NCBI GenBank assembly: GCA_037441385.1
Contig: JBBISH010000001.1
Coordinates: 64,001-128,000 of the forward strand
Origin: Myxococcales bacterium
GTDB taxonomy: Bacteria > Myxococcota_A > UBA9042
DNA: 64,000 bases
Reading direction: 5' to 3'
Part shown: positions 29,760 to 48,324 of the stretch, piece after piece
Layout: the number at the start of each line of letters is the position of its first letter
How positions within the stretch are numbered: position 1 is the stretch's first letter
Notes under the pieces: model-generated
The model's input: only the letters and a program-made list of their open reading frames with translations
What the model was told of the DNA's origin: nothing
Database searches by the model: none
Made by a program: the position numbers and the translations under genes

Positions 29760-30983
29760 TCAGTAGACCGACAACCCCATCGACCCGCCCTGCGTCCAGC
29801 CGCCTGCGCTGACGGACGACTGCGCGTAATTGCCGCCGTAGCGCAAGAACATCGCCAGGCGGGTGGTCCACTCGATCTCGAATAGGCCGCCCACGGCGTA
29901 GTAGGGGCGATTCTCGCTGAACTCCGCCCAGTCGCCGCCGCCGGCCTTGGCCCACTCCAAGCCGGCACCGCCGTACGCGCCCAGGTGAAGGCGCCCCAAA
30001 TCCAACGGCATCAGCTGCACTTCCGCGCCCGCGCGCAGGGTCAGGTAGTCGCTTGCGCCAAAAGTGCCCGAGCCGAACTGCGTGCGCGCGACCACGCCCA
30101 CCATCTGAGTGGGGAAGACGCCAAACGCCAGCTCGGCCGCGCCCGCGGGCTGAACCATGCTGCCGCCCAAAGCCACGCCGGTGTAGCCGCCGCCCAACTG
30201 GTAGGTGAATCCTTCGCGATCCAGCGGCGCCCGCCCGCGCAGCCACAGGCCCATGCCCTCTTGGCCCACCAGGACCGCGGTCTCGTCGGGGCGCATGTCG
30301 CCGGGGCGAATCTCGTCCAGCGCCAGGATGCGGTGACCGCCGTTGTCGCTGAGCAAGTGCACCGGGTGGTGCGGGTGAACGGCGACCCAGCCGTCGTGGC
30401 GCGCCCCTTCTGTCGCGGCCAGCGCAACGCCCACAACGATGGCGGTGACCACTAGCACCGCCGCAGCCCCTGCCAGGCTATCGCGATCGGCCTTGCCCTT
30501 GCTGGCCGCGGCCTTGGCGACTTCGCTCATGCCCCCCTTGTCGGCCGGTCCTGGCGAAGGAGTCGCGACGCCGCCTGCCCCAACCGCACCACCGCCGCCG
30601 ACTCGAACATAGTAGGGCGTGTAGAACGGGTCACCCCAGCCGTAGCCACCGTAGTAAGAATAGTGCGGAGTTACAGGCACTCCGACCGGCACGGGCACCG
30701 GCGCGGGTGGCGCGTCGCCCGCCTCGGCTTGCGGACCGGGGTCAAAGGGCGGAGCCGGCGGCACATCGGCCGACGTCGAAAACCGTTGCACAGAGCGAAC
30801 ATGCTTACCCCGTTCGCTGCGGTCGACCTTGCTGAGGCGCTCGATCTCGTCGTGGCTGACCGTGAAGGTGGGCGACAAGCAAGCCGACTGAAGCAGGCCG
30901 GCAAGGGCGACCACGGCAACCGCGCCACTGCGCGCAAAGCGCGCGAGGACCGGGACTGGAATAGGGGAATAGGGCTCGCGCAT
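29760..30983 (-). CDS. Hypothetical lipoprotein with a Tyr/Gly-rich segment and C-terminal outer-membrane beta-barrel-like domain
   Basis: Lipobox-like QSAC. The last ~150 aa are alternating amphipathic strands ending in an aromatic residue (GLSVY). Confidence 0.6.
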   Translation of the reverse strand: MREPYSPIPVPVLARFARSGAVAVVALAGLLQSACLSPTFTVSHDEIERLSKVDRSERGKHVRSVQRFSTSADVPPAPPFDPGPQAEAGDAPPAPVPVPVGVPVTPHYSYYGGYGWGDPFYTPYYVRVGGGGAVGAGGVATPSPGPADKGGMSEVAKAAASKGKADRDSLAGAAAVLVVTAIVVGVALAATEGARHDGWVAVHPHHPVHLLSDNGGHRILALDEIRPGDMRPDETAVLVGQEGMGLWLRGRAPLDREGFTYQLGGGYTGVALGGSMVQPAGAAELAFGVFPTQMVGVVARTQFGSGTFGASDYLTLRAGAEVQLMPLDLGRLHLGAYGGAGLEWAKAGGGDWAEFSENRPYYAVGGLFEIEWTTRLAMFLRYGGNYAQSSVSAGGWTQGGSMGLSVY

Positions 30984-31165
30984 GTCGACCTCGCCGCAAG
31001 GATGCTGCCCGGCACTATAGCTCATTTCGGCGCAACCGCACCAATGGCGTGCCGCCCCCCACGCAGGGCATGCAACGGCGAGGCAACCTCGCTATGCTTG
31101 ACGCTTGGCCGCCGCCGCGGCAGCAGGGCAATATGGGGCGGGCGCTCCCGGTCATCGCCAATTGT

Positions 31166-33088
31166 ATGAGTATGTTCAACGCGTTGCCGCATGTCCAGCG
31201 CGCGACACTCGCGGCCAGCGTGGCGGCGGTGGGGCTGCTGGCTTGCCGGCGCGAGGCACCGGAAACGCCCGTGGCCGCACCTGCTTCAACTCAGGCGCCT
31301 GCCCCGGTTGCTGCTGAGTCCGTCCCGCCGCCTCGCTCGCCGCGCATGGGCTGGAGTTCGGGCCGAGTCGAACGCCAAACCATCGATGTGCTGGTGCGCG
31401 CGGACGCGCCTGGGCTCGAGCCCGGCCCGGCCGATGGCGCAATCCGCCCGGTGGCCGATGCGTGGCGGTCCCTGGGCGGCGTAGAGCACGTGGTCACGCG
31501 CGCGCGCGAAGGCGAAGTGCGGGCGCTGATTCGCTTTGACGCTACCGCGCAACTGCCCGACGCGGCCACCGCCGCAGTGGCCTCGGCCTGGCAAGCTCAC
31601 CGGCCGCCCGAGCTGGCAACGCCGCAAATTGCTTGGATTCCCAGAGGGAATCGCGCACGGTTAGGCTGGGCCTTTACCAGTTTTGACGGCGGCGAAGACG
31701 CGACCGCGTTGGCCGTGCAGGTAGCGCCGCAGCTGCTGCAGCAATGGCCGGCCTTGGCGCGCACCGAGGTCGCTGGCACGGTGCGGCCGGTGTTCTTCGT
31801 CGACGTGCTGACCAAGTCCGTGCAAGACCGCGGCTCGACCTTGGCGATGGTGGCGGCCGGGGTGCGAAATGTGCTGCAAAGCCACGCCGGGCAGACCAAG
31901 GTCGACGCGGGGCCGCAATCACAGAACATTTTGCAAGCAGCCGTGGATACGGGGAAAATCGGTGTGCACGATCGCGGCGCGCCCGTGGAATTGAGCCGCG
32001 TGGTGGCGCTGCGGCGCGGATTGGGCGGCCCGGTGCGCTCGGGGCTGGTCGGCCGAAACGAGGCGGTGCTCTTGCGCGGCGAGATGGGCGTCGGTGGCGA
32101 GATGGGCAATCTAGAGGCCAAGGCGCGGGCCGAGTTGGCTGCCGCTGGGCACCTGGGGGCGCGACGGCAGGTGTACCCGCAGACTCTGGCCGTGGCGTCG
32201 CGCCTGGTGTTGGATTTGCGCGCAGACCAAACGCCCGAGCGGCCCGTCGATCTGGCCAAACGGCTGTTGGTGGTCCGCGAAATGCCGGGTGTGGTGGGCG
32301 TGGCGGCCATGCAAGGTCTTGACGGGATTCCAGAACCGCTGGACAGCGACGTGCCCGCCAATCGCCGCTGGACGGTTTGGGTGACGGTGTCGACGCCCAA
32401 TGCCGAAGCGCTGATCACGTCGATCGCCGGGCAGCTTGGCGAAGGTCCGTGGCAGGCCTACTCGATCCCCGGCAACCTGGACACGAGCTTGGCTTGGCTG
32501 CTCGATCGTCCCGCGGCGGCGGGCGCGCTGGTGGCCGCTCGGGATCCGGCCCAGTTGGCGCCGGCGGTGGCCGCGCTGGGCGAACAGCTCAAGAAGCATC
32601 CAGACTTTGCCAACCTGCGATCGGGTCCGCAGCGACGCGGCGCCGTGGCGACGTTTGCCCGCCTGCGGGTCGACAACCTGCTGGCCGCGCACTTGCCTAG
32701 CGACGACGCGGCCTTGGCGCTGAACTTGGTCGACCGACCGCAGCCCATCGGTGTTTTTGGCGGCGCGGACGTGTGGTTGGGCCTGCCCACTGGCGCGATG
32801 GCTGCCGAGTACGGGACTCTGCCCCTGGCGTGGCTCCCGCCCGCGAACCGACCGGCGCTGCTGGGCGACATCATCCAACTGCCCAGCGACATGACCGTTT
32901 TGGAGCGTCTGCGCGTCGATGGCGATCCGGCGCTGTGGGTGCAGGTCGACAACCACGGGATGCTGCCCGATGTGGCGGTGACCGCGTTTCGCGACGCGTT
33001 TGAACGGGCCAGCATCGCGCCCACAGTGCAGCGCCTGGGCTTAACCGTGGCCGATCCCACCCTTGGCCTTGGGGCTTGCGTCCCATGA
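31166..33088 (+). CDS. Lipoprotein made of RND (CusA/AcrB-like) periplasmic porter and docking subdomains, without TM helices
   Basis: Lipobox LLAC. Collinear motif similarity (by eye) to PN1, PN2, DN, PC1, PC2 and DC of HME/HAE RND pumps; no TM blocks. Confidence 0.65.
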   Translation: MSMFNALPHVQRATLAASVAAVGLLACRREAPETPVAAPASTQAPAPVAAESVPPPRSPRMGWSSGRVERQTIDVLVRADAPGLEPGPADGAIRPVADAWRSLGGVEHVVTRAREGEVRALIRFDATAQLPDAATAAVASAWQAHRPPELATPQIAWIPRGNRARLGWAFTSFDGGEDATALAVQVAPQLLQQWPALARTEVAGTVRPVFFVDVLTKSVQDRGSTLAMVAAGVRNVLQSHAGQTKVDAGPQSQNILQAAVDTGKIGVHDRGAPVELSRVVALRRGLGGPVRSGLVGRNEAVLLRGEMGVGGEMGNLEAKARAELAAAGHLGARRQVYPQTLAVASRLVLDLRADQTPERPVDLAKRLLVVREMPGVVGVAAMQGLDGIPEPLDSDVPANRRWTVWVTVSTPNAEALITSIAGQLGEGPWQAYSIPGNLDTSLAWLLDRPAAAGALVAARDPAQLAPAVAALGEQLKKHPDFANLRSGPQRRGAVATFARLRVDNLLAAHLPSDDAALALNLVDRPQPIGVFGGADVWLGLPTGAMAAEYGTLPLAWLPPANRPALLGDIIQLPSDMTVLERLRVDGDPALWVQVDNHGMLPDVAVTAFRDAFERASIAPTVQRLGLTVADPTLGLGACVP

Positions 33089-34218
33089 AATCCGCCGCGC
33101 CGGATGCACGCGCCCGCGGGCGTCGCCGGCTGGCGACAGTTCTTGTCGCATGGCAGTTGACCGTCGGTTGTGGCGCGCTGGACGAGTCGGCCCCAGTGGT
33201 CGCCAAACCCAGCCACTGCAAGACCGTGGACGAGCGTCTGGCACCGCTGATGAAGCTGGCCCATCAGGGTAAAACCAGCCACCTGGCGGCACTGGTGGCC
33301 GAACGCCTGGATCCGGCTGGCCAACGCGCCGTAGTGCAACTGGTGCTGGACATTGCCTACGCGCTACCAGGGGACATCAGCAAGGATCTTCCAGATCTGC
33401 TCGCACCCACGGGTTTGGGCGCGCTGGTGCCGTTGCTGGTAGCCATCTTGGCTCCCCTGCCGGGTGATCCGCACGCTACGCCGCCGGTACCGCCCAAGAT
33501 CGAGGCCATGAAGGCGTTTTCGGCCGTGGCTCAAAGCTGCCTGAGCCAAGAGATGTTCGTTTTGGGCAAGCGGCTGTTCGCCGAGCCCGAAGCCGCCGAC
33601 GCGGTGGCGGGTCTGCTGGGCGCGGGCACGGGCGGGATCAAGCAGATCCTGGGTGCGGTGCAGGCCGCGGGCGCCGAGGGGCGCATGGGCATGCAGACGC
33701 TGGTCCGCAACCTGATGACTTCGCTGGCGGCCGATGATTTTGCCCCCGAGCCGCTGCTGGCGCTGCTCGACCGCCTGGTCGATCCTGCCAATCCCGGTGC
33801 GCTGGGTGCCGTGAGCACGTTCTTGCACAGCATGGTGCTGGGTCACTCGGCGCAGGACCGCCAGCAAGCTCTGCAGGCGCTGGGCGGATTTGCCAAGTGT
33901 ATGCTGGCGCTGGACCCCGACATGGCGATTGCCGGCCACGCCTACGATGTGGTGGCCAACTTGGAACTGCCCGAAGCGGCGACCATCACCATCGACACCC
34001 ACCGCTGGCTGCCCATTGTGGCGATTGCGATGGACGTGCTGGCCAGTCACCCCGCCTCGCGCGATGCCTGGAGCCAGCTGCTGGGACTGCTGCTGCGGCC
34101 AGAGACGGGTATCGCCGCCCTGCCCGACTTGGTCGCGCTGATGCAAAGCGAAGCGCTGCCAGGTGTTTTTGGTCTTCTGGCCGATCTGGTGGCCCTACCT
34201 TGCCAGGAGCAGCCGTGA
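33085..34218 (+). CDS. Hypothetical alpha-helical, Leu-rich lipoprotein
   Basis: ATGA overlap with the upstream gene; lipobox TVGC; amphipathic helical pattern; four additional Cys. Confidence 0.7.
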   Translation: MKSAAPDARARGRRRLATVLVAWQLTVGCGALDESAPVVAKPSHCKTVDERLAPLMKLAHQGKTSHLAALVAERLDPAGQRAVVQLVLDIAYALPGDISKDLPDLLAPTGLGALVPLLVAILAPLPGDPHATPPVPPKIEAMKAFSAVAQSCLSQEMFVLGKRLFAEPEAADAVAGLLGAGTGGIKQILGAVQAAGAEGRMGMQTLVRNLMTSLAADDFAPEPLLALLDRLVDPANPGALGAVSTFLHSMVLGHSAQDRQQALQALGGFAKCMLALDPDMAIAGHAYDVVANLELPEAATITIDTHRWLPIVAIAMDVLASHPASRDAWSQLLGLLLRPETGIAALPDLVALMQSEALPGVFGLLADLVALPCQEQP

Positions 34219-35621
34219 CCACCGCGCGGCTTGCGGCGGCTGCCGCGACCCTGTTCTTGGCAACTCCTTGCCATGCCTCGGTTTTTGAGCTGTTTGGCGC
34301 CGGTCCCCGCTCAATGGCGATGGTGGGCGCGAGCACGGCGTCGGCCGAGGGTGGCGAAGCCGCATTCCACAACCCCGCCATGCTCATGGCATCGCCCTTG
34401 GCCGGCGCGTGGTTCGGCGTGTCGACCACCCGCATGGGCCTGGACATCACATTGCAGCGGCCCGTCTGCACGGGCAGTTACACCAGCTGCAACAGCCAAT
34501 ATCCCGGTGGCTTTTCTAGCCGCAACCCCGTATTGCCAGAGAACTCGAGTGCCTTTGAGCTGGGCTGGAACTACCCGGTTGGCGGCATCTTGCGCAACCG
34601 GTTGGCCTTTGGCGCCGCGCTGGCCCTGCCGGTAGGGCACTTGATCCGCATTGCCGGCCCCGATCCGCAGGCGCCAAACTTCATTCAATACGAGGGCATG
34701 CCCGATCGCCTGGCCTTCCTGGTCTCGATGGCGGGCCGCATCACGGACCGATGGTGGCTGGGCGTGGGCACGCAGGTTCTGGCCGTGCTGAATGCGCAGA
34801 TCGACCTGCAACTCAACGCCACCAATCGCAACTATGACCGCGCGACCATCAACATCGGTCTGCAGCCGCGGGCGCGCTTGACCGCCGGCACCGCGTTCCA
34901 TCCCCGCGACGACCTGTGGTTTGGGCTGGCATGGCGACAGCAATTGTCGCTGCAATACGGCATCCCGGCCGATGTCGCCGTGGGTTCGCCCGCCGAGCTG
35001 GCCATTGGCTTGGGGCATGACACGCTGTACTCGCCGGATGTGGTCAGCTTGGGCGCGGCTTGGCGCAGTAGCCAGGGCGGCGTGCGCATGTCGGCCGATC
35101 TGGCCTGGTCGCGGTGGTCGGCGATGCCAGACCCTTCGCCGTCGGTAACCCTTGACGTCCGCGGCGACGGCGTGCGCGCCTTTGGCCTGAATTCGGCCTT
35201 GGATGTGGGCACGGATACCCCCATCATTGCCCTGCATTTCCGCGACACCTTCAGTCCGGCGCTCGCCACCGAAGTTCGCCTCACCGACGACCTGCTGCTG
35301 CGCGGCGGCTACCGCTACCGGCCCACGCCCGCACCTCGCGCCGAGGGGCCGTTCAAGTACCTGGACAACGACGCTCATATTCTGGGCTTGGGCGTGGGCT
35401 ACCACTTTGGGACCTTGGCCCCACGTCTCCAGCAGCAACTCCGCGACGCGGGTGCCAGCGCCGTGGACACGCCCGGTCCGCTGCACGTCGACGTGGGGAT
35501 CCAGAGCCAGATCCTGCCTCAGCGCACGGTCTACCCCAGCGACGTCCACGACCCGGTCGGTGGCATCGCCCACGGCGGCAGTGTCTGGCACGCGGGGGTC
35601 GCATTCGGCGGCAGCTTCTGA
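34215..35621 (+). CDS. FadL/OmpP1-family outer-membrane transporter
   Basis: GTGA overlap; signal peptide; hatch motif 'GPRSMAMVGASTASAEGGEAAFHNPA'; 'LRGGYRYRPTP'; C-terminal Phe. Confidence 0.8.
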   Translation: MTTARLAAAAATLFLATPCHASVFELFGAGPRSMAMVGASTASAEGGEAAFHNPAMLMASPLAGAWFGVSTTRMGLDITLQRPVCTGSYTSCNSQYPGGFSSRNPVLPENSSAFELGWNYPVGGILRNRLAFGAALALPVGHLIRIAGPDPQAPNFIQYEGMPDRLAFLVSMAGRITDRWWLGVGTQVLAVLNAQIDLQLNATNRNYDRATINIGLQPRARLTAGTAFHPRDDLWFGLAWRQQLSLQYGIPADVAVGSPAELAIGLGHDTLYSPDVVSLGAAWRSSQGGVRMSADLAWSRWSAMPDPSPSVTLDVRGDGVRAFGLNSALDVGTDTPIIALHFRDTFSPALATEVRLTDDLLLRGGYRYRPTPAPRAEGPFKYLDNDAHILGLGVGYHFGTLAPRLQQQLRDAGASAVDTPGPLHVDVGIQSQILPQRTVYPSDVHDPVGGIAHGGSVWHAGVAFGGSF

Positions 35622-35724: not shown

Positions 35725-36492
35725 ATGCAACAGATACTCCGCAATCGCATCCGCATAGGCCTACTCGCGACGGCCGCGACCTTGGCGCTTGCCGGCTGCG
35801 GCAGCTCGACCAGCACGCCGAGCGCCGCCAGCGACAGCCAAGGCAGCCTGGACACCGCCAGCAGCGACACCAAGGCCGATACCAACACCACCAAGACGGA
35901 CACCACCGTCAAAGCCGACACCACCAAAGCCCCCTGCAAGCCTTGGGAAACGCCCACCGAATGGAACTGCCCAGCCGACACGCACTGCGCGTACGACGAG
36001 AATGACGTGATCGCCTGCATGCCCAACGGCAGCCACGGCGTGGGCGAAGACTGCGCCGACGGTGGCGGCTGCAAGATCGGGCTGTGCGTGCAAGCCAGCA
36101 ACGGCGCATCGGCCTGCGCCCCGTTCTGCACGACTGAGAGCCAGTGCGACTCGAACACCTGCAACAAGATCCAGGGCAAGAAGTACAGCACCTGCGACGT
36201 GGCCAAGTACACCTCGTGCGCGCCCCTGACGCCCAAGTGCCCCACGGGCCAGTCGTGCTACCTGCTGGGCAACCTGGGCTTTGTCTGCTCGAACGCCGGC
36301 ACGCTGCAAAGCGGCGAGGCTTGCGTCAGCAATTCGGAGTGTGCGCCCGGCCTTACGTGCGCGGGCGCCGCGGGCAGCACCAACGGCCTATGCCGCAAGC
36401 TGTGCAGCACCACCTCTCAGCCCAACGGCTGCGACGATCCGTCGACCAACTGCTCCAAGCTCGGCTCGGGCGCAGGGTACTGTGAGCAATAG
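35725..36492 (+). CDS. Cysteine-rich lipoprotein with a Thr/Ser-rich linker
   Basis: Lipobox LAGC; 'DTKADTNTTKTDTT' linker; Cys repeats such as 'GEACVSNSECAPGLTC...CRKLC'. Confidence 0.8.
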   Translation: MQQILRNRIRIGLLATAATLALAGCGSSTSTPSAASDSQGSLDTASSDTKADTNTTKTDTTVKADTTKAPCKPWETPTEWNCPADTHCAYDENDVIACMPNGSHGVGEDCADGGGCKIGLCVQASNGASACAPFCTTESQCDSNTCNKIQGKKYSTCDVAKYTSCAPLTPKCPTGQSCYLLGNLGFVCSNAGTLQSGEACVSNSECAPGLTCAGAAGSTNGLCRKLCSTTSQPNGCDDPSTNCSKLGSGAGYCEQ

Positions 36493-36525
36493 CCGCCCCG
36501 TCCGCTTGACTCAGGTAGGGTTCGC

Positions 36526-38037
36526 ATGAGCACTCCTCCCAGCCTGCTCGACATTTTGGACACCACGGTCACGCTCGAGTGGGCCGAGACGCGCAGTATG
36601 GGCACGCTGCTGCAGCTTGGCGGGCGCAGCTTGGTGGTCACGGCCCTGCGCGCACCCGAAGTCGGCACCACGGTGTTCCTGCGCATCGAAGACGACAAGT
36701 CCGGCGAGGCCATGGCAGTCGACGGAACCTGCACCGGCGTGACCCAGAGCGACTGGGGCGAGCAGGAAGTCGCCCTCGACGTCAAACGGGTCGGGACAGT
36801 GGCCTCGGCGGCGGCGCTGCGCAGTTTCTTGGAGCGGCACGGCCTGGAACCCGGCGGCGCGGTGTCGGTCGGCCGCAATCGCGACAATCCCGACCTGAAG
36901 CGCTACGTCTACACCCTTCCCGAGCCCAAGCCCGGTAGCACCGCGACCTCGCCGATTCTCCCGGCGAATGTCACCGCCCGGAACCCTGCACCGGTCGTCC
37001 ACGAGTCCACCAAAACCCTTGGATCGCGCACGGATTTGGCCGCCCAGATTGAAGCCGCTCGGTCTGCCGCGGCGGCTCCACAAGAAGCTGTGGGGCTGGC
37101 CAGGCCCACCGCCCCTTCGCCGCCGCCGGCCGTCGCCATTTCTGTACCGATGCTGGACTCCAGCGCAGATCAAGAGTTGGCTGACCTGCTCTCGGCCCTG
37201 TCCAACGAACGCCCGACCCCGGCGATCGATACCTTGGCCATCGTCACTCCCACCAGCACTGCCGCCAGCCCTGCCGCACCGGCGCAGGCCAAGCCGGCCG
37301 CACCGACCAGGACCGCAGGGCCAAGTGCCGACGAAAACGCTACGGTCGAGCTGTCGCTCGCCAGTCTGGCGCTGGCGGCGCCCAGTCATTCGCCGGTGCC
37401 GACCGCCGCGCAACCGCTGCCGCGTCCGCCAAGCCCCCCGCAGGGAATCTCGGCCCCGGGCAGCCTGCTCGGCGCGGCGCTCAAGCCGGCCCCGGCCAAG
37501 CCAGCGGTCGATCTCGACCACGACTTCTCGGAGAAGATCCTGGTCCAGACCGTCGATCAGGCCACTACGATTGCGGCGCCCGTGGTCACAGTTCCAGGCC
37601 GCGACCGGCCGGCGCCGTCCAGCCCCGCGCTGAACAATCGCCCCACCGAGCAGTCGCCGATGGCGGGCCTGAGCCACACCGAACCGCTCGGCGCGGCACC
37701 ATTGTTCGCCACCGACTCGGCGCAGCGGGTAGAAATTGCGGTCCAGTTCGAACTGGGGCCCAAGAAGAAGAAGATCCCGGGCACATTGATCCGTTTGGGC
37801 GAAAGCAAGTTGCGGGTATGCAGCGACAGCCTGCCCCAATTGTACGAGCGCCTGGCCGTGCTGGTGCCGCTCAAGAACAATCCCAAGAACCTGCTGACGT
37901 TGCGCTGCGAAGTCACCCGCGTGCGCACCGGCGAAGACGGCAGCGTGCCCTGCTTTGACGCCCGCCTGACCGCGGCCGGCAACACTCCGGCGATTCTGGC
38001 CAAAGTGCGCGAATTGCTGAACGAGCCCCCAGGATAG
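36526..38037 (+). CDS. Hypothetical protein: two degenerate PilZ-like domains joined by a long Pro/Ala linker
   Basis: N-terminal 'GTLLQLGGRSLVV...PEVGTTVFLRI...VDGTCTGV' and C-terminal 'GTLIRLGESKLRV...LTLRCEVTRV'. Confidence 0.5.
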   Translation: MSTPPSLLDILDTTVTLEWAETRSMGTLLQLGGRSLVVTALRAPEVGTTVFLRIEDDKSGEAMAVDGTCTGVTQSDWGEQEVALDVKRVGTVASAAALRSFLERHGLEPGGAVSVGRNRDNPDLKRYVYTLPEPKPGSTATSPILPANVTARNPAPVVHESTKTLGSRTDLAAQIEAARSAAAAPQEAVGLARPTAPSPPPAVAISVPMLDSSADQELADLLSALSNERPTPAIDTLAIVTPTSTAASPAAPAQAKPAAPTRTAGPSADENATVELSLASLALAAPSHSPVPTAAQPLPRPPSPPQGISAPGSLLGAALKPAPAKPAVDLDHDFSEKILVQTVDQATTIAAPVVTVPGRDRPAPSSPALNNRPTEQSPMAGLSHTEPLGAAPLFATDSAQRVEIAVQFELGPKKKKIPGTLIRLGESKLRVCSDSLPQLYERLAVLVPLKNNPKNLLTLRCEVTRVRTGEDGSVPCFDARLTAAGNTPAILAKVRELLNEPPG

Positions 38038-38082
38038 GTTGCAGTCGAACCCAGGCCCACGCGGCCCCCGGCGGAGCGAACC

Positions 38083-38781
38083 ATGCCGCACGTACTGATC
38101 GTCGAAGACGAACCGGACTTGCGCGCGTTGGTGGCCCACCACGTGGAAATGGCCGGGCACTCGTGCAGCGAGGCGGGAACTTGCGCCGAGGCCTTGGCAG
38201 CGGCCGGCCAGCAACGGCCCGACATCGTCATCCTGGACCTGATGCTGCCCGACGGTTCGGGCGTGGACGTGTGCCGCAGCCTGCGCGCGCAGCCCAAGCT
38301 GGCCACGGTGCCGATCCTCATGCTGACCGCGCTGGCGGCCGAACCCGAGCGCGTGACGGGCTTCGAGGCCGGTGCCGACGACTACGTGACCAAGCCGTTC
38401 TCGGTCCGCGAGCTGATGTTGCGGATCTCGGCCATCCTGCGGCGTGCGCCCGCGGAGCCGCCGCCGCCGAGCAACGTGGTCGAGGCCGCCGGAATTCGCC
38501 TGGACGCCGAGCGCCACGAGGTCCACGTCCAGGGTGAGTTGCTGCACCTGACCGCGCTGGAATTCCGCCTGTTGGCCGCGCTTTTGGCCAACGCGGGCAA
38601 GGTGCTGACGCGCCAGTCGCTGCTGGAAGATGTGTGGGAGATGAGCCCTGATCTGCGGACGCGGACAGTCGATACGCACGTCAAGCGCCTGCGCGAGCGC
38701 CTGGGCCCCGCTGGCGAGGCCATCGCCACCGTGCGCGGCGTGGGCTACAGCTTGCGCACGGGCAGCGAGGGCCCACAGTGA
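38083..38781 (+). CDS. OmpR/PhoB-family response regulator (PhoB-like)
   Basis: 'VLIVEDE', 'ILDLMLPD', 'GADDYVTKPFS', winged HTH 'RTVDTHVKRLR...TVRGVGY'. Confidence 0.92.
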   Translation: MPHVLIVEDEPDLRALVAHHVEMAGHSCSEAGTCAEALAAAGQQRPDIVILDLMLPDGSGVDVCRSLRAQPKLATVPILMLTALAAEPERVTGFEAGADDYVTKPFSVRELMLRISAILRRAPAEPPPPSNVVEAAGIRLDAERHEVHVQGELLHLTALEFRLLAALLANAGKVLTRQSLLEDVWEMSPDLRTRTVDTHVKRLRERLGPAGEAIATVRGVGYSLRTGSEGPQ

Positions 38782-40521: not shown

Positions 40522-41298
40522 TCAAGAGTTGCCGGGCAATTTCGGCCGCCGCGACAGCGCGATCCAGACCGCAACCAGCGTCACCGCCAACAGATACCAC
40601 GTCGAGGCATACTCGATGTGCTTGGTCGGCAACGGGTGGATCGGATACTCATAGCCATCGAGCGGCCAGGCCTCTGGATTGACCGGCTGGCCCACCGCCT
40701 GCTCGCCCGCGTCCAGCAGCAGGTCGGGATCCAGATCCGCGACCGTAGCCGAAATCGCCTTGGGATCCGCAATCATCCAAGTCGCCAACCCTTCGTGACT
40801 GCCCAGCGGCTGCTGGCCCGGCGGCGCGTCGCCCACCACCCGAAGCCGGCCGCGAAACAGGTCGGGCGGCTCAGTCGCCAGCTTCTTGCGGAACTCGGGC
40901 AACTTGTCGACAGGAACCCAGCCCAAATTCACCAAGAGCTTGGCGTGCGGCCCCGACGCGACCTGGATCGGCGCAAGCACACCCCAGCCACGCTGACCAA
41001 ACTTGTAGCGCGCGGTCAGCAGGTTGAGGTGCTCCAGGTCCAGCTTGCCGCGCAGAGCCGCCCGGCGAAAATGCAGCTGTTCCAGCCGGTTGGAGCTTCC
41101 CTGCCCTTCACTCAGGCTGGTCACCGGCGGCCGCTCGTCGTGCTGGCGCCGGTACTGCTCGACCCGACCGCTGGTTTCGCCAAAACGGCGCACCTGCCAC
41201 GTGCCCAGGCTGAGCAAAATCCCCAGCATGATCACGGCAATGAGGGTCGGCACCAGCTTGGGCGCAAATACCTTTGGATTGTCTTGCTGTTGCGTCAT
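40522..41298 (-). CDS. SURF1 family cytochrome oxidase biogenesis protein
   Basis: 'LLSLGTWQVRR', 'LLVNLGWVP', 'KHIEYASTWYLLA'. Confidence 0.9.
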   Translation of the reverse strand: MTQQQDNPKVFAPKLVPTLIAVIMLGILLSLGTWQVRRFGETSGRVEQYRRQHDERPPVTSLSEGQGSSNRLEQLHFRRAALRGKLDLEHLNLLTARYKFGQRGWGVLAPIQVASGPHAKLLVNLGWVPVDKLPEFRKKLATEPPDLFRGRLRVVGDAPPGQQPLGSHEGLATWMIADPKAISATVADLDPDLLLDAGEQAVGQPVNPEAWPLDGYEYPIHPLPTKHIEYASTWYLLAVTLVAVWIALSRRPKLPGNS

Positions 41299-41325
41299 GT
41301 TGGCGCCCCGTCCTGGCGGTGTGCT

Positions 41326-41958
41326 CTAGGGCTGCTCGGCCAGACCCCGGGCAGCGGCTTCCAGCGCCTGCATGCCGGCCGCGTCCCGATCGAAAAGCCC
41401 ACGCAGGTGCCCCTGCCGGTCCACCAGCACAAAGCGCAGGCTGTGGGCCGTGTCCAGCGGAGTGGGCGCCAGGATCGCCGTGTGCTCCGAAGGCAGCCCG
41501 GTCACGCGATCCGCGCGGATGATCGGCTGCATGAAGCCCTGCACCACCAGCCGCTCCATGGTCTCGTACTCACCGGTCAGCAGCGACCAAACCCGCGTGT
41601 CGGCGCCATATTTCTGGCCGTAGGCGCGCAGCACCTCGGGCGTGTCGGTCATCGGGTCCACCGAGATGCTGATGATTCGTACCGGTGGCTTGCCCGTGGC
41701 CGGCATCCAGGCCTTCAGGCGATTCTGCAGCTCGGCTGTGGCTTTGGCGAGCGGCGGACACTGGGTGGGGCAAGACGTAAACAAGAAGTTGGCGATCCAG
41801 ACCGTGCCGCGCAGGCTGGTGTCGTCCACGGGCCGGCCGTCTTGATCGGTCATCGCAAAGGCCGGCAGCACGCCCAGGTCTTGCAGGGGCGGCGCGTCGC
41901 GACGGCAAGCCAGCAGCACCACCGTCGTCGCGGCCACGAGCCACGCGCGGCCGGTCAT
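41326..41958 (-). CDS. SCO1/SenC family copper chaperone (lipoprotein)
   Basis: 'FLFTSCPTQCP', 'SISVDPMTDTPEVL', 'HSLRFVLVDRQG'; lipobox LLAC. Confidence 0.93.
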   Translation of the reverse strand: MTGRAWLVAATTVVLLACRRDAPPLQDLGVLPAFAMTDQDGRPVDDTSLRGTVWIANFLFTSCPTQCPPLAKATAELQNRLKAWMPATGKPPVRIISISVDPMTDTPEVLRAYGQKYGADTRVWSLLTGEYETMERLVVQGFMQPIIRADRVTGLPSEHTAILAPTPLDTAHSLRFVLVDRQGHLRGLFDRDAAGMQALEAAARGLAEQP

Positions 41959-43259
41959 GGTGCCCCCGCAGGCGCGGCCAGCCATGGCTGGGCAGGCAAG
42001 GGCCCGGTCAGGCTGGTCAAGAAAGCCACCAGATCTTCAGCATCTACGCTGCCGGGCAGCGGCCGCAGGGTCAGCTCGCGGTGCCCCAGCTGCGCCTTGC
42101 CAGGCAAGGTGCGATAGAAATCGACCACATCACGCAAGGTTGCCGCCTGTCCCGCGTGAAAGTAGGGCGCCGTCATCGCCACATTGCGCAGACTAGGCGT
42201 CTTGAACGCCCCGACAAAGTCGGCAAAGCGCGGATCCAAGAACCGGAGTTCGTCGCATTGCTTGGCATCCGAGTACGCCTCGCCACAGCGGAACGGGTCG
42301 TGCTTGACCTGCCCCGCGCCCAGCGTGCGACCGCCGTCCACTCCGGTCAGAGGTTGGCCTTGATCGTCGTCGCCACCGGGCAGACCCAGGTTGTGGAAGG
42401 TGCGGTCGCTGAAAAGCGGCCCGTTGTGGCAGTTGACGCAGCCTGCGGTGCCGATGAACGCCCGCAGACCGCGCCGCGCAGACTCGCTCAAGTGCCCACC
42501 GCCCGCGGCATCGCCCGCCACCACGGCCTGTACGTAGCGATCGAACGGCGCTGGCTGCGGCTGCAGGTGCCGTTCGTAGGCCTCGATTGCTTTGCCAAAA
42601 TGGGCGAATACGCGGTTCACCGCGTCTTGGTCTGCCGGCTGCATCGCCGCCCAGGCCACCTGCAGCGGGTGCTGCCGGTCCAGATCCACTGGCATGGCGT
42701 GGGGCGGAAAGCGCTGCAGATCGGCCAAATTCGGCATCGGGCCAAACAGCTGCTCGTAGGGCTGCCGATAGCGATCGTACAGGGCGTGCGCCAGTGCCAG
42801 ACGATCCAGCCCGTGCTCGTTCGCGGCTTCAACGGGCCCCAGCGCCTGCGACCACGCGCTGTCTTTGCGGCCGTCCAAGAACAAAAACGGGAACCAGCCC
42901 GCACCGATCACGGTGGGCGCGTTGCGCTTGGTCGCTCCCACCCCTTGGGCCTGCCGTCGACCGTCCGTAAAATACTTTTGCGGCTCGTGGCAGGTCGCGC
43001 ATGCCACCTTGCCGTTGCTAGAAAGGGCCTTGTCAAAGAACAGAGCTTGCCCCAGCTTGGCGGCGTTCGGCTCATCGGCCCAGCGATTGCCAGGACTTGC
43101 GGGCAGTTTGTTGACCAGCGCCAGGCTCGCCAGTATGCGCAGCTCTGCCGGAGTCCACGGGCCGTCGCTAGTCCGGCAACCCACGCCCGCCACACCAAGC
43201 AGGCTGGCGACGAGCAGCCACCGCAGCGGCGGCCCCAAACGAAGTCCCAAGCGGTCCAT
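41955..43259 (-). CDS. Diheme cytochrome c peroxidase superfamily protein (MauG/MbnH-like)
   Basis: 'LGQALFFDKALS.NG.VACATCH', 'RNAPT', 'CVNCHNGPLFSD', 'FKTPSLRNVAMTAPYFHAG...VVDFY'. Confidence 0.9.
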   Translation of the reverse strand: MDRLGLRLGPPLRWLLVASLLGVAGVGCRTSDGPWTPAELRILASLALVNKLPASPGNRWADEPNAAKLGQALFFDKALSSNGKVACATCHEPQKYFTDGRRQAQGVGATKRNAPTVIGAGWFPFLFLDGRKDSAWSQALGPVEAANEHGLDRLALAHALYDRYRQPYEQLFGPMPNLADLQRFPPHAMPVDLDRQHPLQVAWAAMQPADQDAVNRVFAHFGKAIEAYERHLQPQPAPFDRYVQAVVAGDAAGGGHLSESARRGLRAFIGTAGCVNCHNGPLFSDRTFHNLGLPGGDDDQGQPLTGVDGGRTLGAGQVKHDPFRCGEAYSDAKQCDELRFLDPRFADFVGAFKTPSLRNVAMTAPYFHAGQAATLRDVVDFYRTLPGKAQLGHRELTLRPLPGSVDAEDLVAFLTSLTGPLPAQPWLAAPAGAP

Positions 43260-43265
43260 GGTGGG

Positions 43266-43811
43266 CTACTGCGCCGCGCCGGCTGGCAATGCCTCGGGCG
43301 GTTGTTCAAAGGGCAACTCGAAGGAATCGCTTTGATCCCCCTCGCGCACCTGCACAGAGAACACCCAGTGGCCCTGCATGTGCAGGCGCATCCCCTGGGT
43401 GCGGAATTGCCCCGGCACCAACTGCGCCGTCTCAGGCTTGGTCATCATGCCATGGTGGTGGGCCGGCATGGTCGCATCCACGATCACGGTGGCGTCGGCA
43501 GCCAGCGGCGCGCCGTCCGAGTGCTGCACCCGCGTCACCGCCGCAAACAGGTCGCCGGTCGACGGCACGGTAAAGGTAAAGGTGCCTTTGTACTTGCCGG
43601 CCTTGCTGGTGCCGCCCAGCTCCATGGCGGTGCCAACGGCCGGTGCCGCATTCGCCGGCGCTTGCGCCTGTGCCGGCGCTGGAGCCAGGGCCGGGGCTGG
43701 AGCCAGGGCCGGGGCTGGAGCCAGGGCCGGAGCCGGAGCGGGGACCGGAGCCGCCTTGCCGCATGCACAAAGCACAACAATTCCAAGCAGTAGAAAATGG
43801 GGGGCATTCAT
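43266..43811 (-). CDS. YtkA/FixH-like His/Met-rich lipoprotein
   Basis: Lipobox LCAC; (APALAP)n linker; 'VDATMPAHHHGM', 'GMRLHMQGHW'. Confidence 0.75.
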   Translation of the reverse strand: MNAPHFLLLGIVVLCACGKAAPVPAPAPALAPAPALAPAPALAPAPAQAQAPANAAPAVGTAMELGGTSKAGKYKGTFTFTVPSTGDLFAAVTRVQHSDGAPLAADATVIVDATMPAHHHGMMTKPETAQLVPGQFRTQGMRLHMQGHWVFSVQVREGDQSDSFELPFEQPPEALPAGAAQ

Positions 43812-44884
43812 GGCGTGGCCTGCTTGGGCGCTGCGGCAAGCGCCGGCTGGTCTTCGTCGAGCATCTCGGTCGCCTGCACCGAGGTCTTGTGGCCGCGCGC
43901 CCGATCGATGGCCTCGATGCCCGTGGTGCCGCGCTTGGGCGTGCCCAAGTTGACCCATTGCCAAAACACGCGGCCCAGACCGAACCACATCAAGCCGCCG
44001 CCCGGCATCCACATGAGCAGGCCGCCGATCTGCTGGTCGCTCATGGCGTCGAGCCCCCAGGCGCGCGGCTGCTTGGCGTAGAAGGTGTACAGCACGTCCG
44101 ACGACATCGAGATGATGAGGCCGAGGATCTTCATGCCGAACATGTTGACGAAAATGAACACCATCCGCCGCGGGTACGAGCGCTTCAGCTCCGGGAGCGG
44201 GGCGATCGCCACGAACCAGAACATCACCGACGTCGTCATGAACAGCAAGTGCTCAAAGACGTGCCAGGGGTGCTGCTCCAGCGCCAGGTTGTAGGCGTCG
44301 GGCCAGTGCCACGCCCAGGTCGCGCCGTTGAAGGCGATCGAGGCCACCAGCGGCCCGGCCGCCCAAGCGCCAAACCGCTTGCAGCCCGGCAGGTTATACA
44401 GCGCCCGCCACAGCCATTCGGGGATGCCGAGGATCATCAGCGGCGCCCAGACCAGCTGCAGCAGCATGTGTTGCAGCATGTGCGCCGAAAACAGCAGCTC
44501 GTCGGCCAAGTGGTGCAACGGCCCATCCAGCGACAGGTACATCAGCAGCAGCGAGCCGTAGAAGCTCTGGACACGCCAAGGTTCGGCCGGTTGGTCCGAG
44601 AGCGCGGCCTTTTTGCGCCACTTGGTGATGGCCCAGGCGTACCATGCGCCAAAGGCCAGCGCACCGATCACAATGCTCTCGTGCACTTCCCACACCAGCC
44701 AGGCGGTCCCGCTCTCGAACGCGAGGGCCGCATTGGGCGAGGTGATGGTGGGATTGCCGGTGTGAGCCAGGGCCGGCCGCGCCAGCCAAGCCAGCGCCGC
44801 GAGGGCAAAAAGGCTCACGCCCGCCCAGACGGTCGCAAGGACTCGCCGGGACGGGCGCAGCGGAACCAAAAAGCTAGGACTCAC
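43808..44884 (-). CDS. ctaG: Cytochrome c oxidase caa3 assembly factor CtaG
   Basis: 'LFSAHMLQHMLL', 'WAWHWP', 'HVFEH', 'DQQIGGLLMWMPG'. Confidence 0.9.
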   Translation of the reverse strand: MSPSFLVPLRPSRRVLATVWAGVSLFALAALAWLARPALAHTGNPTITSPNAALAFESGTAWLVWEVHESIVIGALAFGAWYAWAITKWRKKAALSDQPAEPWRVQSFYGSLLLMYLSLDGPLHHLADELLFSAHMLQHMLLQLVWAPLMILGIPEWLWRALYNLPGCKRFGAWAAGPLVASIAFNGATWAWHWPDAYNLALEQHPWHVFEHLLFMTTSVMFWFVAIAPLPELKRSYPRRMVFIFVNMFGMKILGLIISMSSDVLYTFYAKQPRAWGLDAMSDQQIGGLLMWMPGGGLMWFGLGRVFWQWVNLGTPKRGTTGIEAIDRARGHKTSVQATEMLDEDQPALAAAPKQATP

Positions 44885-44939
44885 GGGAACTTCTTTGGCC
44901 TACGCGACATGGCCGTGGCCTCCGGAGCGCTTCTCTGGC

Positions 44940-45695
44940 TCAGGGCATCTTGTCGCCAACGCAGGGCTGGCCGCCCGCCACGTTGGTGCCCTTCAGGCTC
45001 TTGATGTAGTACATGACCTGGCGAATTTCTTCGCCTTTGAGCTGCCCGGCCCAAGCCGGCATCTTGCCGCCCGCCTGGCCCTTGCCAATGGTCATGTACA
45101 ACTCTTTGAACGAGCCGCCGTACTTGTAGCAGTCGTCGGTCAGGTTCAGACCCAGGTTCGGCATGCCGCCGCCCTGCGGGCCGTGACAAGCGGCGCACTT
45201 CTCGCCAAAGACCTTCTTGCCGTCGGCAAATTCCTTGCCCTTGGCCAGGTCAAAGGCGGCCGCAAACTTGGCGTCGTCCAGCGGCTGCTCAAAGGCCGGG
45301 CCCGTGCTCGCTTCGACAAAGCCAAGGGCCTTGGCCTCGGCCGTCACCGCGTAGCCCGCGCCGAACGGCCGGAACATCACCACCGAAAGTAGCGACAGCA
45401 GCACGAACACCACCGTGGCCAGCATCAGCGGCGACAGGAACAAGAACTGATACACCCGGCGGTCGCCGCGCAGGTGCATGAACTCGCCCACCACCGCGCC
45501 AAACTTGGCAACCGACATGATGATCAGCGCCGGCGCCCACAGCGGCCGGGCCGGCTCCCAGATCTCTGGGTAGTGCTTCAGCATCGGCAGCGCCAGCTCG
45601 ATGGCGGTGATCACGGTGAGGATCGCGCCGATCCGCAGGTAGTGCTTCTTGTGCGAATGCGTCACGCCGGATGTGGCGTCGTGCGCCTGGCTCAT
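44940..45695 (-). CDS. Cytochrome c oxidase subunit IV-like protein fused to a C-terminal class I cytochrome c
   Basis: Three TM helices with 'LTVITAIE...AKFGAVVGEFMHL' (prokaryotic subunit IV pattern), then CAACH and 'NLTDD..KYGG...GKMPAW'. Confidence 0.85.
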   Translation of the reverse strand: MSQAHDATSGVTHSHKKHYLRIGAILTVITAIELALPMLKHYPEIWEPARPLWAPALIIMSVAKFGAVVGEFMHLRGDRRVYQFLFLSPLMLATVVFVLLSLLSVVMFRPFGAGYAVTAEAKALGFVEASTGPAFEQPLDDAKFAAAFDLAKGKEFADGKKVFGEKCAACHGPQGGGMPNLGLNLTDDCYKYGGSFKELYMTIGKGQAGGKMPAWAGQLKGEEIRQVMYYIKSLKGTNVAGGQPCVGDKMP

Positions 45696-46354
45696 TTGAT
45701 GAACTCCAACAGGTAGACGAAGGTGAAGATGACGATCCAGACGATGTCGACGAAGTGCCAGTACAGGCCCGCGGACTCCACGGTGATCGGCGAGCGCTCT
45801 TTGTTCAGCTTGCCGTTGCTGATCATGATCGACAGCATCGTCAACCAGATGACGCCCACGGTCACGTGCGCGCCGTGGAAGCCGGTCATGACAAAGAAGG
45901 TCGAGCCGAACAGCGAGGTCGACAGCTTCAGCCCCTCTTCGACGAACTGCGAGAACTCGTACACCTGGAAGCCGACAAACGTCGCGCCGAGCGCCGCCGT
46001 GGCCAGGATGTAGGTGCGCGCGCTGCTGAGCCGCTTCAACCGCGTCGCGTCCACCGCCAGCGCCATCGTCATCGACGACATCAGCAGCAAGAACGTAGAG
46101 ATCGACGTGATGGCGATCGAGAAAACCTGGTTCGGCAGCGGGCCGGCCAGGCTCTTGCCATGGTAGAAGAAATAGGTGCCGATCAGCGAGCCAAAGAACA
46201 TGCACTCGGACCCCAGGAAGGCCCACATCGCCAGTTTGATGTTGGGCAGGCCCAGGAAGTTGTTCTCGGCGCTCACGTGGCCGTGGTCACCGTGGCCGGC
46301 GTCGTGGCCGGCGTCGGGGAGGTGACCGTCTGCAGTGGCGAGCTCTGCGCTCAT
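45692..46354 (-). CDS. ctaE: Cytochrome c oxidase subunit III
   Basis: 'MWAFLGSECMFF', 'FFVMTGFHGAHV', 'GLYWHFVDIVWIVIF'. Confidence 0.95.
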   Translation of the reverse strand: MSAELATADGHLPDAGHDAGHGDHGHVSAENNFLGLPNIKLAMWAFLGSECMFFGSLIGTYFFYHGKSLAGPLPNQVFSIAITSISTFLLLMSSMTMALAVDATRLKRLSSARTYILATAALGATFVGFQVYEFSQFVEEGLKLSTSLFGSTFFVMTGFHGAHVTVGVIWLTMLSIMISNGKLNKERSPITVESAGLYWHFVDIVWIVIFTFVYLLEFIK

Positions 46355-46399
46355 GAAATCCTCACTTCGAAACAGAAGAAGCTGCGAACAGTTTGCCGA

Positions 46400-48241
46400 C
46401 TACACGGGCTCCGTCACCCACTGGTAGATGCCGACCACCACGGTCAGCGCACCCGCCACCGAGATGAGCCACAGCATGGGCGCCAGGTTGAGCAGCAGCA
46501 GGCCCAGGATGACCAGCAGCGCGCCGCTCGCCACCACCAAGGGCTTCCACGAGTACGAGGGCATGTGGATTTGCTCGGCCTCGTGGGGCACCGGGATCGC
46601 CAGATCCTCGCTGTGCTTGTGGTCAAACAGCGGCCGCTCCGAGAACACGACCGGCGTAAAGTCAAAGTTGTGGGCCGGCGGCGGCGACTCGGTCATCCAC
46701 TCCAGCGTGTTGGCATCCCAAGGATCGCGCCCCGCGGTTTTGCCGTTCTTCATGCTGGTGAAGATGTTGTAGACCATCAGCAGCGTGCCGGCGGCCATGA
46801 AGAACACGCCCACCGTGCCCAGCATGTTGTCGAAATTCCAACCCGCATCGGCCGGGTAGGTAAAGATGCGGCGCGGCATGCCGCGGTTGCCCAGGTCGTG
46901 CATCGGCCAGAACGTGATGTTCATGCCAAGGAGGAACAGCCAGAAGTGGGCCTTGCCCAAGCCTTCACTCAGCATTTTGCCAGTGATCTTGGGGAAGTAG
47001 AAGTAGATGCCCGAGAACAGGCCTTGCAGCGCGCCGCCCACCAGCACGTAGTGAAAGTGCGCGACCACAAAGTACGAGTCGTGCTGCTGCAGGTCCAGCG
47101 GCGCGTTGGCGTGCATGACGCCCGATAGACCGCCAATGGTGAACATCGGGATGAACGAGATCGCAAACAGCATCGGCACGGGGAACGTCAGCTTGCCGCC
47201 CCACAACGTGCCCAGCCAGTTGAAGATCTTTACGCCGGTGGGGATGGCAATCACCGCGGTCGTCGCGGCAAACACCGCGTCGGCGATCGGGCCCATGCCG
47301 GCGGTGAACATGTGGTGACCCCACACGCCAAAGCCCACAAAGCCGATGAAGACGCCCGAGAAAATCACCGCGTGCTGGCCGAACAGCGGCCGGCGAGCAA
47401 ATACCGGCAGAACCTCGGACACGATGCCCATCGAGGGCAGGATCAGCACGTACACCTCGGGGTGACCGAACAGCCAGAACAGGTGCTGCCACAGGTGCGG
47501 GTCGCCGCCCATCGCGCTCTCGTAGAACACGGCGCCAAAGGTGCGATCGAAGGCCAGGAAGATGAGGCCGACGGCCACGGGCGGGAAGGAGAACGCGAGC
47601 AGGAACTGGATGACGAGCATCATCCAGGCGAGCACCGGCACGCGCATCAGGGTCATGCCCGGGGCGCGCATGTTCAAGATGGTGACCACGAAGTTGACGC
47701 CCGCGACCATCGAGCTGATGGCGAGGAGCACGAGGCCGGCCCACCAGAAGTCCATGCCGTCGTTGCCGTAGGCGCGGGTCGACAGCGGGGCATAGCCGGT
47801 CCAACCACCTGCGGGGAAGTGGGCGAACACGATCGAGGCGTTGATGACCAACGAGCCGAACAGGAACGTGTACCACGAGAACGCGTTGAGGCGCGGGAAG
47901 GCGACGTCGCGGGCGCCAATCATCAGCGGCACAAAGTAGTTCGAGAAGCCGGCGATCATCGGCATCACGGCCAAGAACACCATGGTGGTCGCGTGCATCG
48001 TAACCAGGCCATTGTACTGGTTGCCGATGAACAGATCCTGGTCGGGCTTGGCCAACTGCAGGCGGAACAACAGGGCTTCCAGGCCGCCGATGAGCAGCCA
48101 GAACAGACCCGCCGAGCCATACAGGATGCCGATCTTCTTATGATCGACGGTGGTCAGCCAGTCGACAAGGCCAGATTTGGCGGGCCGCTCCTGGTGGTAG
48201 ACCGGGGCTTGGGCCTGGGCGAAATCGGCAACGGATGCCAT
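46400..48241 (-). CDS. ctaD: Cytochrome c oxidase subunit I (A1-type heme-copper oxidase)
   Basis: 'DHKKIG', 'WLFGHPEVY', 'VWGHHMF', 'VVAHFHY', 'GMPRR'. Confidence 0.97.
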   Translation of the reverse strand: MASVADFAQAQAPVYHQERPAKSGLVDWLTTVDHKKIGILYGSAGLFWLLIGGLEALLFRLQLAKPDQDLFIGNQYNGLVTMHATTMVFLAVMPMIAGFSNYFVPLMIGARDVAFPRLNAFSWYTFLFGSLVINASIVFAHFPAGGWTGYAPLSTRAYGNDGMDFWWAGLVLLAISSMVAGVNFVVTILNMRAPGMTLMRVPVLAWMMLVIQFLLAFSFPPVAVGLIFLAFDRTFGAVFYESAMGGDPHLWQHLFWLFGHPEVYVLILPSMGIVSEVLPVFARRPLFGQHAVIFSGVFIGFVGFGVWGHHMFTAGMGPIADAVFAATTAVIAIPTGVKIFNWLGTLWGGKLTFPVPMLFAISFIPMFTIGGLSGVMHANAPLDLQQHDSYFVVAHFHYVLVGGALQGLFSGIYFYFPKITGKMLSEGLGKAHFWLFLLGMNITFWPMHDLGNRGMPRRIFTYPADAGWNFDNMLGTVGVFFMAAGTLLMVYNIFTSMKNGKTAGRDPWDANTLEWMTESPPPAHNFDFTPVVFSERPLFDHKHSEDLAIPVPHEAEQIHMPSYSWKPLVVASGALLVILGLLLLNLAPMLWLISVAGALTVVVGIYQWVTEPV

Positions 48242-48312: not shown

Positions 48313-48324
48313 CGGATGAGGTGC

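Follow-up and report, generated by a model that had tools for sequence, protein, structure and literature searches.

A natural RND-type headpiece without transmembrane helices, predicted to be a tethered lipoprotein, in a Myxococcales bacterium

What can the head of a transporter do without the motor that drives it? Transporters of the resistance-nodulation-division (RND) superfamily have 12 transmembrane (TM) helices, and proton flow in this TM domain is coupled to the conformational cycling of the periplasmic porter domain. The question is raised by a gene in a stretch of 64,000 nucleotides (nt) from a Myxococcales bacterium (contig JBBISH010000001.1, positions 64,001 to 128,000; hereafter the window). 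Its product, here called the headpiece, belongs to a small and conserved family of predicted periplasmic lipoproteins that descend from an RND transporter and have their closest sequence ties to the heavy-metal CusA/CzcA type. All twelve TM helices are lost and the six periplasmic subdomains PN1, PN2, DN, PC1, PC2 and DC are kept. TM1 is replaced by a signal peptide, a lipobox and an Ala/Pro tether of 36-78 amino acids (aa), TM2-7 are replaced by a linker of five residues and TM8-12 are removed. It is highly probable that the gene encodes an RND headpiece which occurs in nature without TM helices and is under selection; this identity taken together with the function proposed below is considered moderately probable.

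Architecture and relatives of the headpiece

The reading frame is open from 31049 to 33088 on the plus strand, the part upstream of the ATG at 31166 included (features are collected in Table 1). Long spurious open reading frames (ORFs) are frequent on both strands of the window because of its high G+C content (~63-73%), and the headpiece ORF is set apart from them by its homologs. The N-terminus of the protein, MSMFNALPHVQRATLAASVAAVGLLAC, reads as a signal peptide with the lipobox LLAC at its end, and Cys27 (nt 31244-31246) is the predicted lipidation site. A first-pass annotation, made by a model from the DNA letters, had described the protein as a lipoprotein without a TM domain, quoted a series of RND-like motifs and placed the junction between the two loops at ~32170-32200. 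All of the motifs are found in the order claimed, and the junction is confirmed by the structure model, in which DSSP assigns a strand to residues 334-339, the last of the loop-1-like half, a linker (TLAVA) to residues 340-344 and a strand to residues 345-351, the first of the loop-2-like half.

Membrane helices were sought by Kyte-Doolittle hydropathy over stretches of 19 residues with a threshold of 1.6. The maximum for the headpiece is 1.34 and 0 stretches reach the threshold, as expected from the annotation; the signal peptide is the sole helix before residue 60 of the model. The same test applied to a fragment of a genuine RND transporter (P0045) gives many overlapping, strongly hydrophobic stretches with values up to 2.69. 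The lipoprotein N-terminus recurs in the family: a lipobox is present in 27 of the 31 members whose sequence extends 20 residues or more ahead of PN1 (22 with the strict and 5 with the relaxed pattern), and the lipobox Cys column is conserved at 97% in the family alignment. Judged from its sequence, the headpiece thus has the signal peptide and the lipobox with invariant Cys that characterise bacterial lipoproteins, the substrates of signal peptidase II. Across the family the tether has a median length of 57 aa and contains 25% Ala and 16% Pro.

A word-indexed search with the headpiece returned the protein itself and two relatives with 68% and 53% identity. A profile built from these three sequences and run on 1.84 billion representative proteins matched 43 representative clusters at E<=0.001; 41 of these remain at E<=1e-10, and 32 at E<=1e-30. 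The 41 strong clusters span 187-704 aa; none is pump-sized and none keeps the TM bundle as an intermediate. The two weakest matches (E 1.7e-4 and 8.3e-4) are genuine RND transporter fragments with a classic TM1; in one of them, strongly hydrophobic segments also follow in a block beyond residue 329. The most invariant residues of the family are D74 and R123 and, clustered in the PC1/PC2 part, R346, D386, G387, T403, W405, D439, W444 and P488. A C-terminal Cys was considered as a family motif and rejected, being found in 4 of 41 members. A tblastn search against plasmids gave no match.

An ortholog lies on L001, a contig of an uncultured Myxococcales metagenome-assembled genome and the sole locus returned by the three-sequence alignment. 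The two genes align over 583 codons with 0 gaps, and the ratio of nonsynonymous to synonymous substitution rates (dN/dS) is ~0.25, a rough value with dS at 0.93 and near saturation. The ratio is 0.22 in the first half of the headpiece and 0.29 in the second, and 0.10-0.23 in neighbouring genes. By this measure of codon change, the headpiece is under purifying selection.

A second profile, based on an alignment of 43 family sequences (A2), connects the family with RND pumps, which make up 13 of its 17 matches to PDB sequences at E<=10. The top match, CusA (E 1.3e-6), is aligned in two colinear stretches, profile positions 77-244 to CusA 51-224 and 500-623 to CusA 734-863, and BpeF 45-325 is aligned by positions 80-335. 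Among 5.8 billion proteins the A2 profile added nothing beyond a 1009-aa protein (P0062; E 3.4e-8) that is named CzcA in its source (PF00873). On this protein hmmsearch placed profile positions 76-334 at residues 41-315, just ahead of the first internal hydrophobic segment; this TM2 segment begins at residue 330, directly after the aligned loop. Comparison of the family profile with P0062 by hhalign gave a probability of 95%, and the fragment P0045 was aligned to the family profile over residues 46-291. When the members were scanned singly, 23 of 43 matched the Pfam family ACR_tran at E<=1. At E<=0.1 it was matched by 20 of 33 relatives, with the best stretches at model positions ~35-240 and most ending by ~220. 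The gathering score of 28 bits was reached by 3 of the 33 (P0023 with 36.0, P0040 with 35.4 and P0034 with 28.5), and the headpiece itself stays below it. In a protein-language-model search, three ACR_tran clusters came out on top with a score of 0.80, which is weak. The resemblance to RND pumps is far beyond chance.

The AlphaFold2 model computed from A2 has a mean predicted local distance difference test score (pLDDT) of 89.9 and a predicted TM-score of 0.88, with 496 of 640 residues at 90 or above. The porter pattern beta-alpha-beta-beta-alpha-beta occurs four times in it, together with two inserted docking regions, and the model thus contains the porter and docking subdomains that form the two periplasmic loops of the RND superfamily. 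Foldseek returned at least 500 matches in the PDB, including 243 chains with E<=0.001. AcrBper chains fill the first ten places (5ENT, 5ENO, 5EN5 and 7B8R/S/T; E 3.7e-24 to 1.2e-22), with TM-scores of 0.49-0.52 by query and 0.53-0.56 by target and identities of 12-13%; the best single match is 5ent_B (E 3.7e-24, TM-score 0.50/0.55). They are followed by CusA (4dnt_A, 1.2e-21), CmeB, MdtB, AdeB, MtrD, MexB, ZneA, AcrD, OqxB and BpeB/F. The AcrBper alignments take up 618-635 columns for chains of 572-587 residues, compared with 817-900 columns for full-length pumps. The excess of ~220-230, read from the column counts, is what a skipped TM bundle would be expected to produce. The two hits separated by a gap that the first-pass annotation had predicted were thus seen, and the comparison of a monomer model with CusA and AcrB that it had proposed as a check gave a structural match.

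AcrBper, in which the two loops of AcrB were fused by engineering into a soluble protein, crystallises as a trimer with a DARPin (designed ankyrin repeat protein) and binds drugs, according to the passages available from its description (PMC8617272). It resembles the headpiece in having both periplasmic loops in one chain without TM helices, and it is the best structural match. Unlike this man-made protein, the headpiece is natural and conserved and has a tether of 44 aa with a predicted lipid anchor; the segment for its hairpin is short and is not predicted to form one. Because AcrBper does so, an isolated RND head can fold and bind ligands. The hairpin segment of DN is a coil of 10 aa in the headpiece, 0 aa long in P0023 and P0034 and 14-16 aa long in the RND proteins P0045 and P0062. 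A study on AcrB indicates that this hairpin matters for the stability of its trimer (PMC4303003). An RND-style homotrimer is not assured for the headpiece, because its segment is a 10-residue coil and is absent from P0023 and P0034.

The closest canonical relatives by profile are the heavy-metal-efflux-type RND pumps CusA and CzcA, whose periplasmic subdomains are colinear with those of the headpiece and among which CusA is the best full-length structural match. These pumps have ~1009-1055 aa and TM helices, are proton-driven, are accompanied by genes for a membrane fusion protein (MFP) and an outer-membrane factor (OMF) and form obligate trimers; none of this is present or seen for the headpiece. 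The RND superfamily (ACR_tran, PF00873; TC 2.A.6) is defined by twelve TM helices in two bundles of six, which the headpiece lacks. The proton-relay residues of RND pumps are located in TM4, TM10 and TM11, and these carrier helices are absent from the headpiece. Because the relay residues sit in the missing helices, it cannot itself be a proton-driven pump. Since it fails on TM helices, proton relay, Pfam threshold and MFP/OMF partners, it is filed as a new architectural variant of the RND superfamily and not as an RND transporter. The first-pass annotation knew of no description of such a protein; likewise, none of a natural TM-less RND headpiece was found in the full-text literature, with most subscription journals outside its coverage, and none appears in the matching passages of a review of tripartite pumps (PMC8277102).

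Coupled genes and their surroundings

The stop codon of the headpiece gene overlaps the ATG of the next gene by 4 nt (ATGA, 33085-33088), and that gene in turn overlaps the following one. These 4-nt overlaps couple translation of the headpiece to that of a helical lipoprotein and of an outer-membrane channel of the FadL type. The first-pass annotation was right that the frame is intact and runs into the next gene, and overlooked the coupled lipoprotein and channel.

Table 1. Headpiece gene, its parts and motifs, and neighbouring genes (positions in the window unless given as residues of the headpiece)
Feature	Position	Strand	Remarks
Headpiece ORF	31166..33088	+	640 aa, ATG start at 31166
Predicted signal peptide and lipobox LLAC	31166..31246 (LLAC nt 31235-31246)	+	LLAC at residues 24-27; from the translation
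Ala/Pro-rich tether	31247..31378	+	residues 28-71, 44 aa; disordered in the model, pLDDT 45-58 over residues 21-60
Equivalent of RND periplasmic loop 1 (PN1, PN2, DN)	31379..32182	+	residues 72-339; pLDDT mostly >90
Junction TLAVA replacing TM2-TM7	32183..32197	+	residues 340-344, 5 aa
Equivalent of RND periplasmic loop 2 (PC1, PC2, DC)	32198..33040	+	residues 345-625; from Foldseek and profile alignment
Short C-terminal tail and stop codon	33041..33088	+	15 residues; protein terminates where TM8 would begin
Motif VLVRADAPGLEP	residues 75-86		
Motif LQQWPALARTEVAG	residues 191-204		
Motif GAPVELSRVVALRRG	residues 271-285		
Motif REMPGVVGVAAMQG	residues 371-384		
Motif ALVAARDPAQL	residues 454-464		
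Motif PALLGDII	residues 563-570		
Motif RVDGDPALWVQVD	residues 583-595		
Helical lipoprotein	33085..34218	+	377 aa, lipobox TVGC; start overlaps headpiece stop
FadL/TodX-type outer-membrane channel	34215..35621	+	468 aa; GTG start overlaps previous stop (GTGA, 4 nt)
Cys-rich lipoprotein	35725..36492	+	lipobox LAGC; ~100 nt past the FadL-type gene
Divergent lipoprotein upstream	29760..31025	-	421 aa, lipobox LQSAC; no family

The helical lipoprotein has 15 homologs at 51-91% identity, one of them named 'Deltaproteobacteria bacterium', and four further invariant Cys outside its lipobox. Its model is all-helical, with 17 helices and a pLDDT of 73. Comparison with PDB folds gave nothing at E<=0.001 (best E 0.14, TM-score ~0.1), and there was no Pfam, NCBIfam or PDB sequence match and no atlas lead (0.75). 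With no match of any of these kinds, this protein possibly has a new fold. The channel matches Pfam Toluene_X (PF03349) over residues 30-398 of 468 with E 1.7e-13 and 50.3 bits against a cut-off of 29.7. Its match to the NCBIfam alkane-uptake model AupA is weak (8.2e-6; 24.6 bits against a cut-off of 840), and that to PDB 3dwo has E 0.005. It contains the tripeptide NPA (in HNPAM), a hallmark of the FadL hatch. A structure prediction for the complex of headpiece residues 60-640 with residues 45-377 of the helical lipoprotein, run without controls, scored 0.00, which speaks neither for nor against binding.

The Cys-rich lipoprotein that follows has more than 20 Cys in ~190 residues, belongs to no Pfam or NCBIfam family and is syntenic in L001 at 75% identity; whether it is part of the headpiece unit is uncertain. 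The divergent 421-aa protein upstream is conserved in L001 at 73% identity. Its sequence includes a Pro-rich region and a single hydrophobic stretch, and its C-terminal part, rich in Gly and aromatic residues and closing with ...GLSVY, is reminiscent of an outer-membrane barrel. A Ser/Thr kinase gene also lies upstream of the headpiece.

Nine queried genes of the window, eight of them real-looking and the ninth the probable antisense artefact at 36511-38679, occur in the same order in L001 at 42-82% identity; for the operon, the conserved order goes with identities of 68-82%. A second relative provides a circumstantial hint of synteny, in that 27034 bases is given as the longest contig for the headpiece of 53% identity as well as for a helical lipoprotein of 64% identity. 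Among the 95 ORFs of at least 250 aa in the window, scanned with a Pfam cut-off of E<=1e-5 or, for one subset, E<=1e-3, there was no further match to ACR_tran, HlyD-type or OEP families. The absence of an adaptor (MFP) or TolC gene nearby that was annotated at first pass therefore stands, and the headpiece is not encoded together with an MFP or OMF, as the components of tripartite systems are, within these 64 kb. A scan for promoters and terminators gave counts at chance level.

Several other loci of the window were observed in passing. Downstream of the Cys-rich lipoprotein, an Arg/Gly/Gln-rich ORF of 722 aa (36511-38679, -) is a probable antisense artefact, and the ORF of 503 aa on the opposite strand (36526-38037, +), without a Pfam family, may be the real gene. 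Two very large ORFs, of 915 aa (7882-10629, +; E 2e-8) and 1823 aa (58491-63962, +; E 4e-13), contain the 'Dictyostelium repeat' (Dicty_CTDC), which is Cys-rich and unusual for a bacterial genome. A cytochrome c oxidase cluster (40522-50985, -) comprises SURF1, CtaG, a COX4/cytochrome c fusion, COX1, COX2 with a cytochrome c domain and a UbiA-family prenyltransferase. Consecutive genes at 1453-5906 (+) for a MoxR-type AAA ATPase, a DUF58 protein and a BatA/VWA protein make up a Bat (aerotolerance)-like operon, and a 749-aa protein (52953-55202, -) combines a caspase domain (Peptidase_C14, 7.9e-25) with DUF4384.

Proposed role and rival explanations

FadL channels let hydrophobic compounds through the outer membrane. 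The headpiece may be an energy-uncoupled, membrane-tethered module for ligand binding or hand-off that acts together with the coupled helical lipoprotein and the FadL-type channel. Molecules of a hydrophobic or amphipathic kind would be taken up or passed on by it between the channel and the periplasm or inner membrane, a cargo to which the operon points by analogy with AupA/AupB (below), and the tether would hold the head at the membrane and yet let it move. The first-pass annotation had likewise suggested an energy-uncoupled module, for substrate binding or docking. This role is put forward tentatively, as a possibility of less than even likelihood.

Two kinds of known system offer partial parallels. 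The monomeric lipid-moving proteins MmpL3 and HpnN and the eukaryotic NPC1/Patched are members of the RND superfamily whose periplasmic or luminal domains handle lipids, which suggests by analogy that porter-type domains can carry hydrophobic cargo. Unlike the headpiece, these proteins keep the 12-TM motor and lack docking subdomains of the AcrB/CusA type, and none of them is among the top Foldseek matches listed for it. A comparison of the PD-domains of RND-superfamily proteins is covered in passages of the tripartite-pump review (PMC8277102). The other parallel comes from Marinobacter hydrocarbonoclasticus, in which AupA, of the FadL family, and the inner-membrane protein AupB physically interact and mediate alkane uptake, according to passages of the study, where AupB is not described as RND-like (PMC5989066). 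In both cases an operon pairs an outer-membrane protein of the FadL family with another protein of the envelope. The likeness is one of analogy only, as the FadL-type neighbour of the headpiece reaches 24.6 of the 840 bits required and the headpiece matches no NCBIfam model.

A number of points weigh against the reading of the protein as an RND headpiece with this role. Searched alone, the headpiece has 0 Pfam and 0 NCBIfam matches at E<=10 and only a chance match among PDB sequences; because such single-sequence searches are empty, the RND likeness is statistically visible only via the family profile or the structure model. The loop-2 half is marginal by sequence (the stretch at CusA 734-863 has an independent E of 0.34), and hmmsearch and hhalign against P0062 recovered loop 1 only, with no second stretch; the PC1/PC2/DC half is supported mainly by the structure model. 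One or two isolated hydrophobic stretches marginally above the threshold (1.64-2.05) occur in 10 of 42 relatives, none of which has a hydrophobic cluster like that of P0045. The nearest canonical relatives in sequence, CusA and CzcA, are metal pumps and fit poorly with a hydrophobic cargo. The residue at +2 after Cys27 is Arg, and the anchor may sit in either the inner or the outer membrane; in Myxococcus xanthus, Lys at +2 marks inner-membrane lipoproteins (8/12) in the passages seen of PMC3222651. Finally, synteny is found in one close relative, with a hint in one more, and the association in the operon may stem from recent shared descent and not from function.

Other explanations start from the same observations. 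The headpiece would be an accessory or regulatory subunit of tripartite pumps encoded elsewhere if it competed for or docked to their MFP or OMF, or mixed with RND protomers, and so modulated efflux. Both docking subdomains, DN and DC, are kept, and on a tether of 36-78 aa the head could extend to other complexes of the envelope. Even so, this is unlikely, as no ACR_tran, HlyD-type or OEP-type gene occurs among the 95 ORFs surveyed, the coupling is to a FadL-type channel instead, and the DN hairpin segment, which lies between protomers, is the short coil described above or absent altogether. A periplasmic metal buffer or chaperone, which would use the inherited ion-binding porter domain of a CusA/CzcA/ZneA-type pump, is slightly less probable still. 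It would agree with CusA and a protein named CzcA as the best canonical sequence matches and with three invariant acidic residues (D74, D386 and D439). With the methionine triad of CusA as the point of comparison, however, no Met, His or Cys column is conserved at 80% or more besides the initiator Met and Cys27 of the lipobox, the number of Cys per member varies from 0 to 8 and D74 is aligned to a Gln in CusA; moreover, the gene is partnered by lipoproteins and a channel of the FadL type and not by metal-homeostasis genes.

The headpiece could also be one part of a split RND pump and be joined non-covalently to a TM-only motor protein encoded elsewhere. This is quite improbable: the window, the 64 kb of the genome covered, holds no TM-only RND gene, the lipid anchor and long tether argue for independent membrane attachment and no family member has a TM bundle as an intermediate. 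Hardly credible at all is a decaying RND remnant or a chance resemblance, a reading in which the lack of any Pfam, NCBIfam or PDB sequence match for the headpiece alone would find its explanation. The first-pass annotation had proposed orthologs and dN/dS as the check, and a pseudogene is rejected because of the gap-free alignment over 583 codons and the dN/dS of ~0.25. The 41 related TM-less clusters of the same architecture, the pLDDT of 89.9, the Foldseek E of 3.7e-24 and the lipobox gained in 27 of 31 members likewise speak against decay or chance.

For a conserved RND headpiece under selection, the consequences reach beyond this locus. RND pumps are understood as a head driven by a membrane domain; a conserved head without its motor implies that selection can act on something the head does by itself, and one may ask what a porter/docking domain does when nothing powers it. 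The headpiece is the counterpart in nature of the engineered AcrBper, and with Cys27 removed it could, in soluble form, be an easy model for ligand recognition by RND porters. A further step, rather unlikely as it stands, would be a new envelope machine assembled from the headpiece and its two coupled partners, the helical lipoprotein and the barrel of the FadL type. In it the porter/docking module, freed of its proton motor and held by a lipid tether, would serve as periplasmic gate or shuttle to a channel in the outer membrane that takes hydrophobic molecules. If this were true, the RND headpiece would be an autonomous, transferable module, and myxobacteria would possess a transport route independent of the proton-motive force. 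The finding provides a fold and a testable hypothesis for ~40 clusters of unnamed proteins and links those clusters to FadL-type channels, for which few periplasmic acceptors are known.

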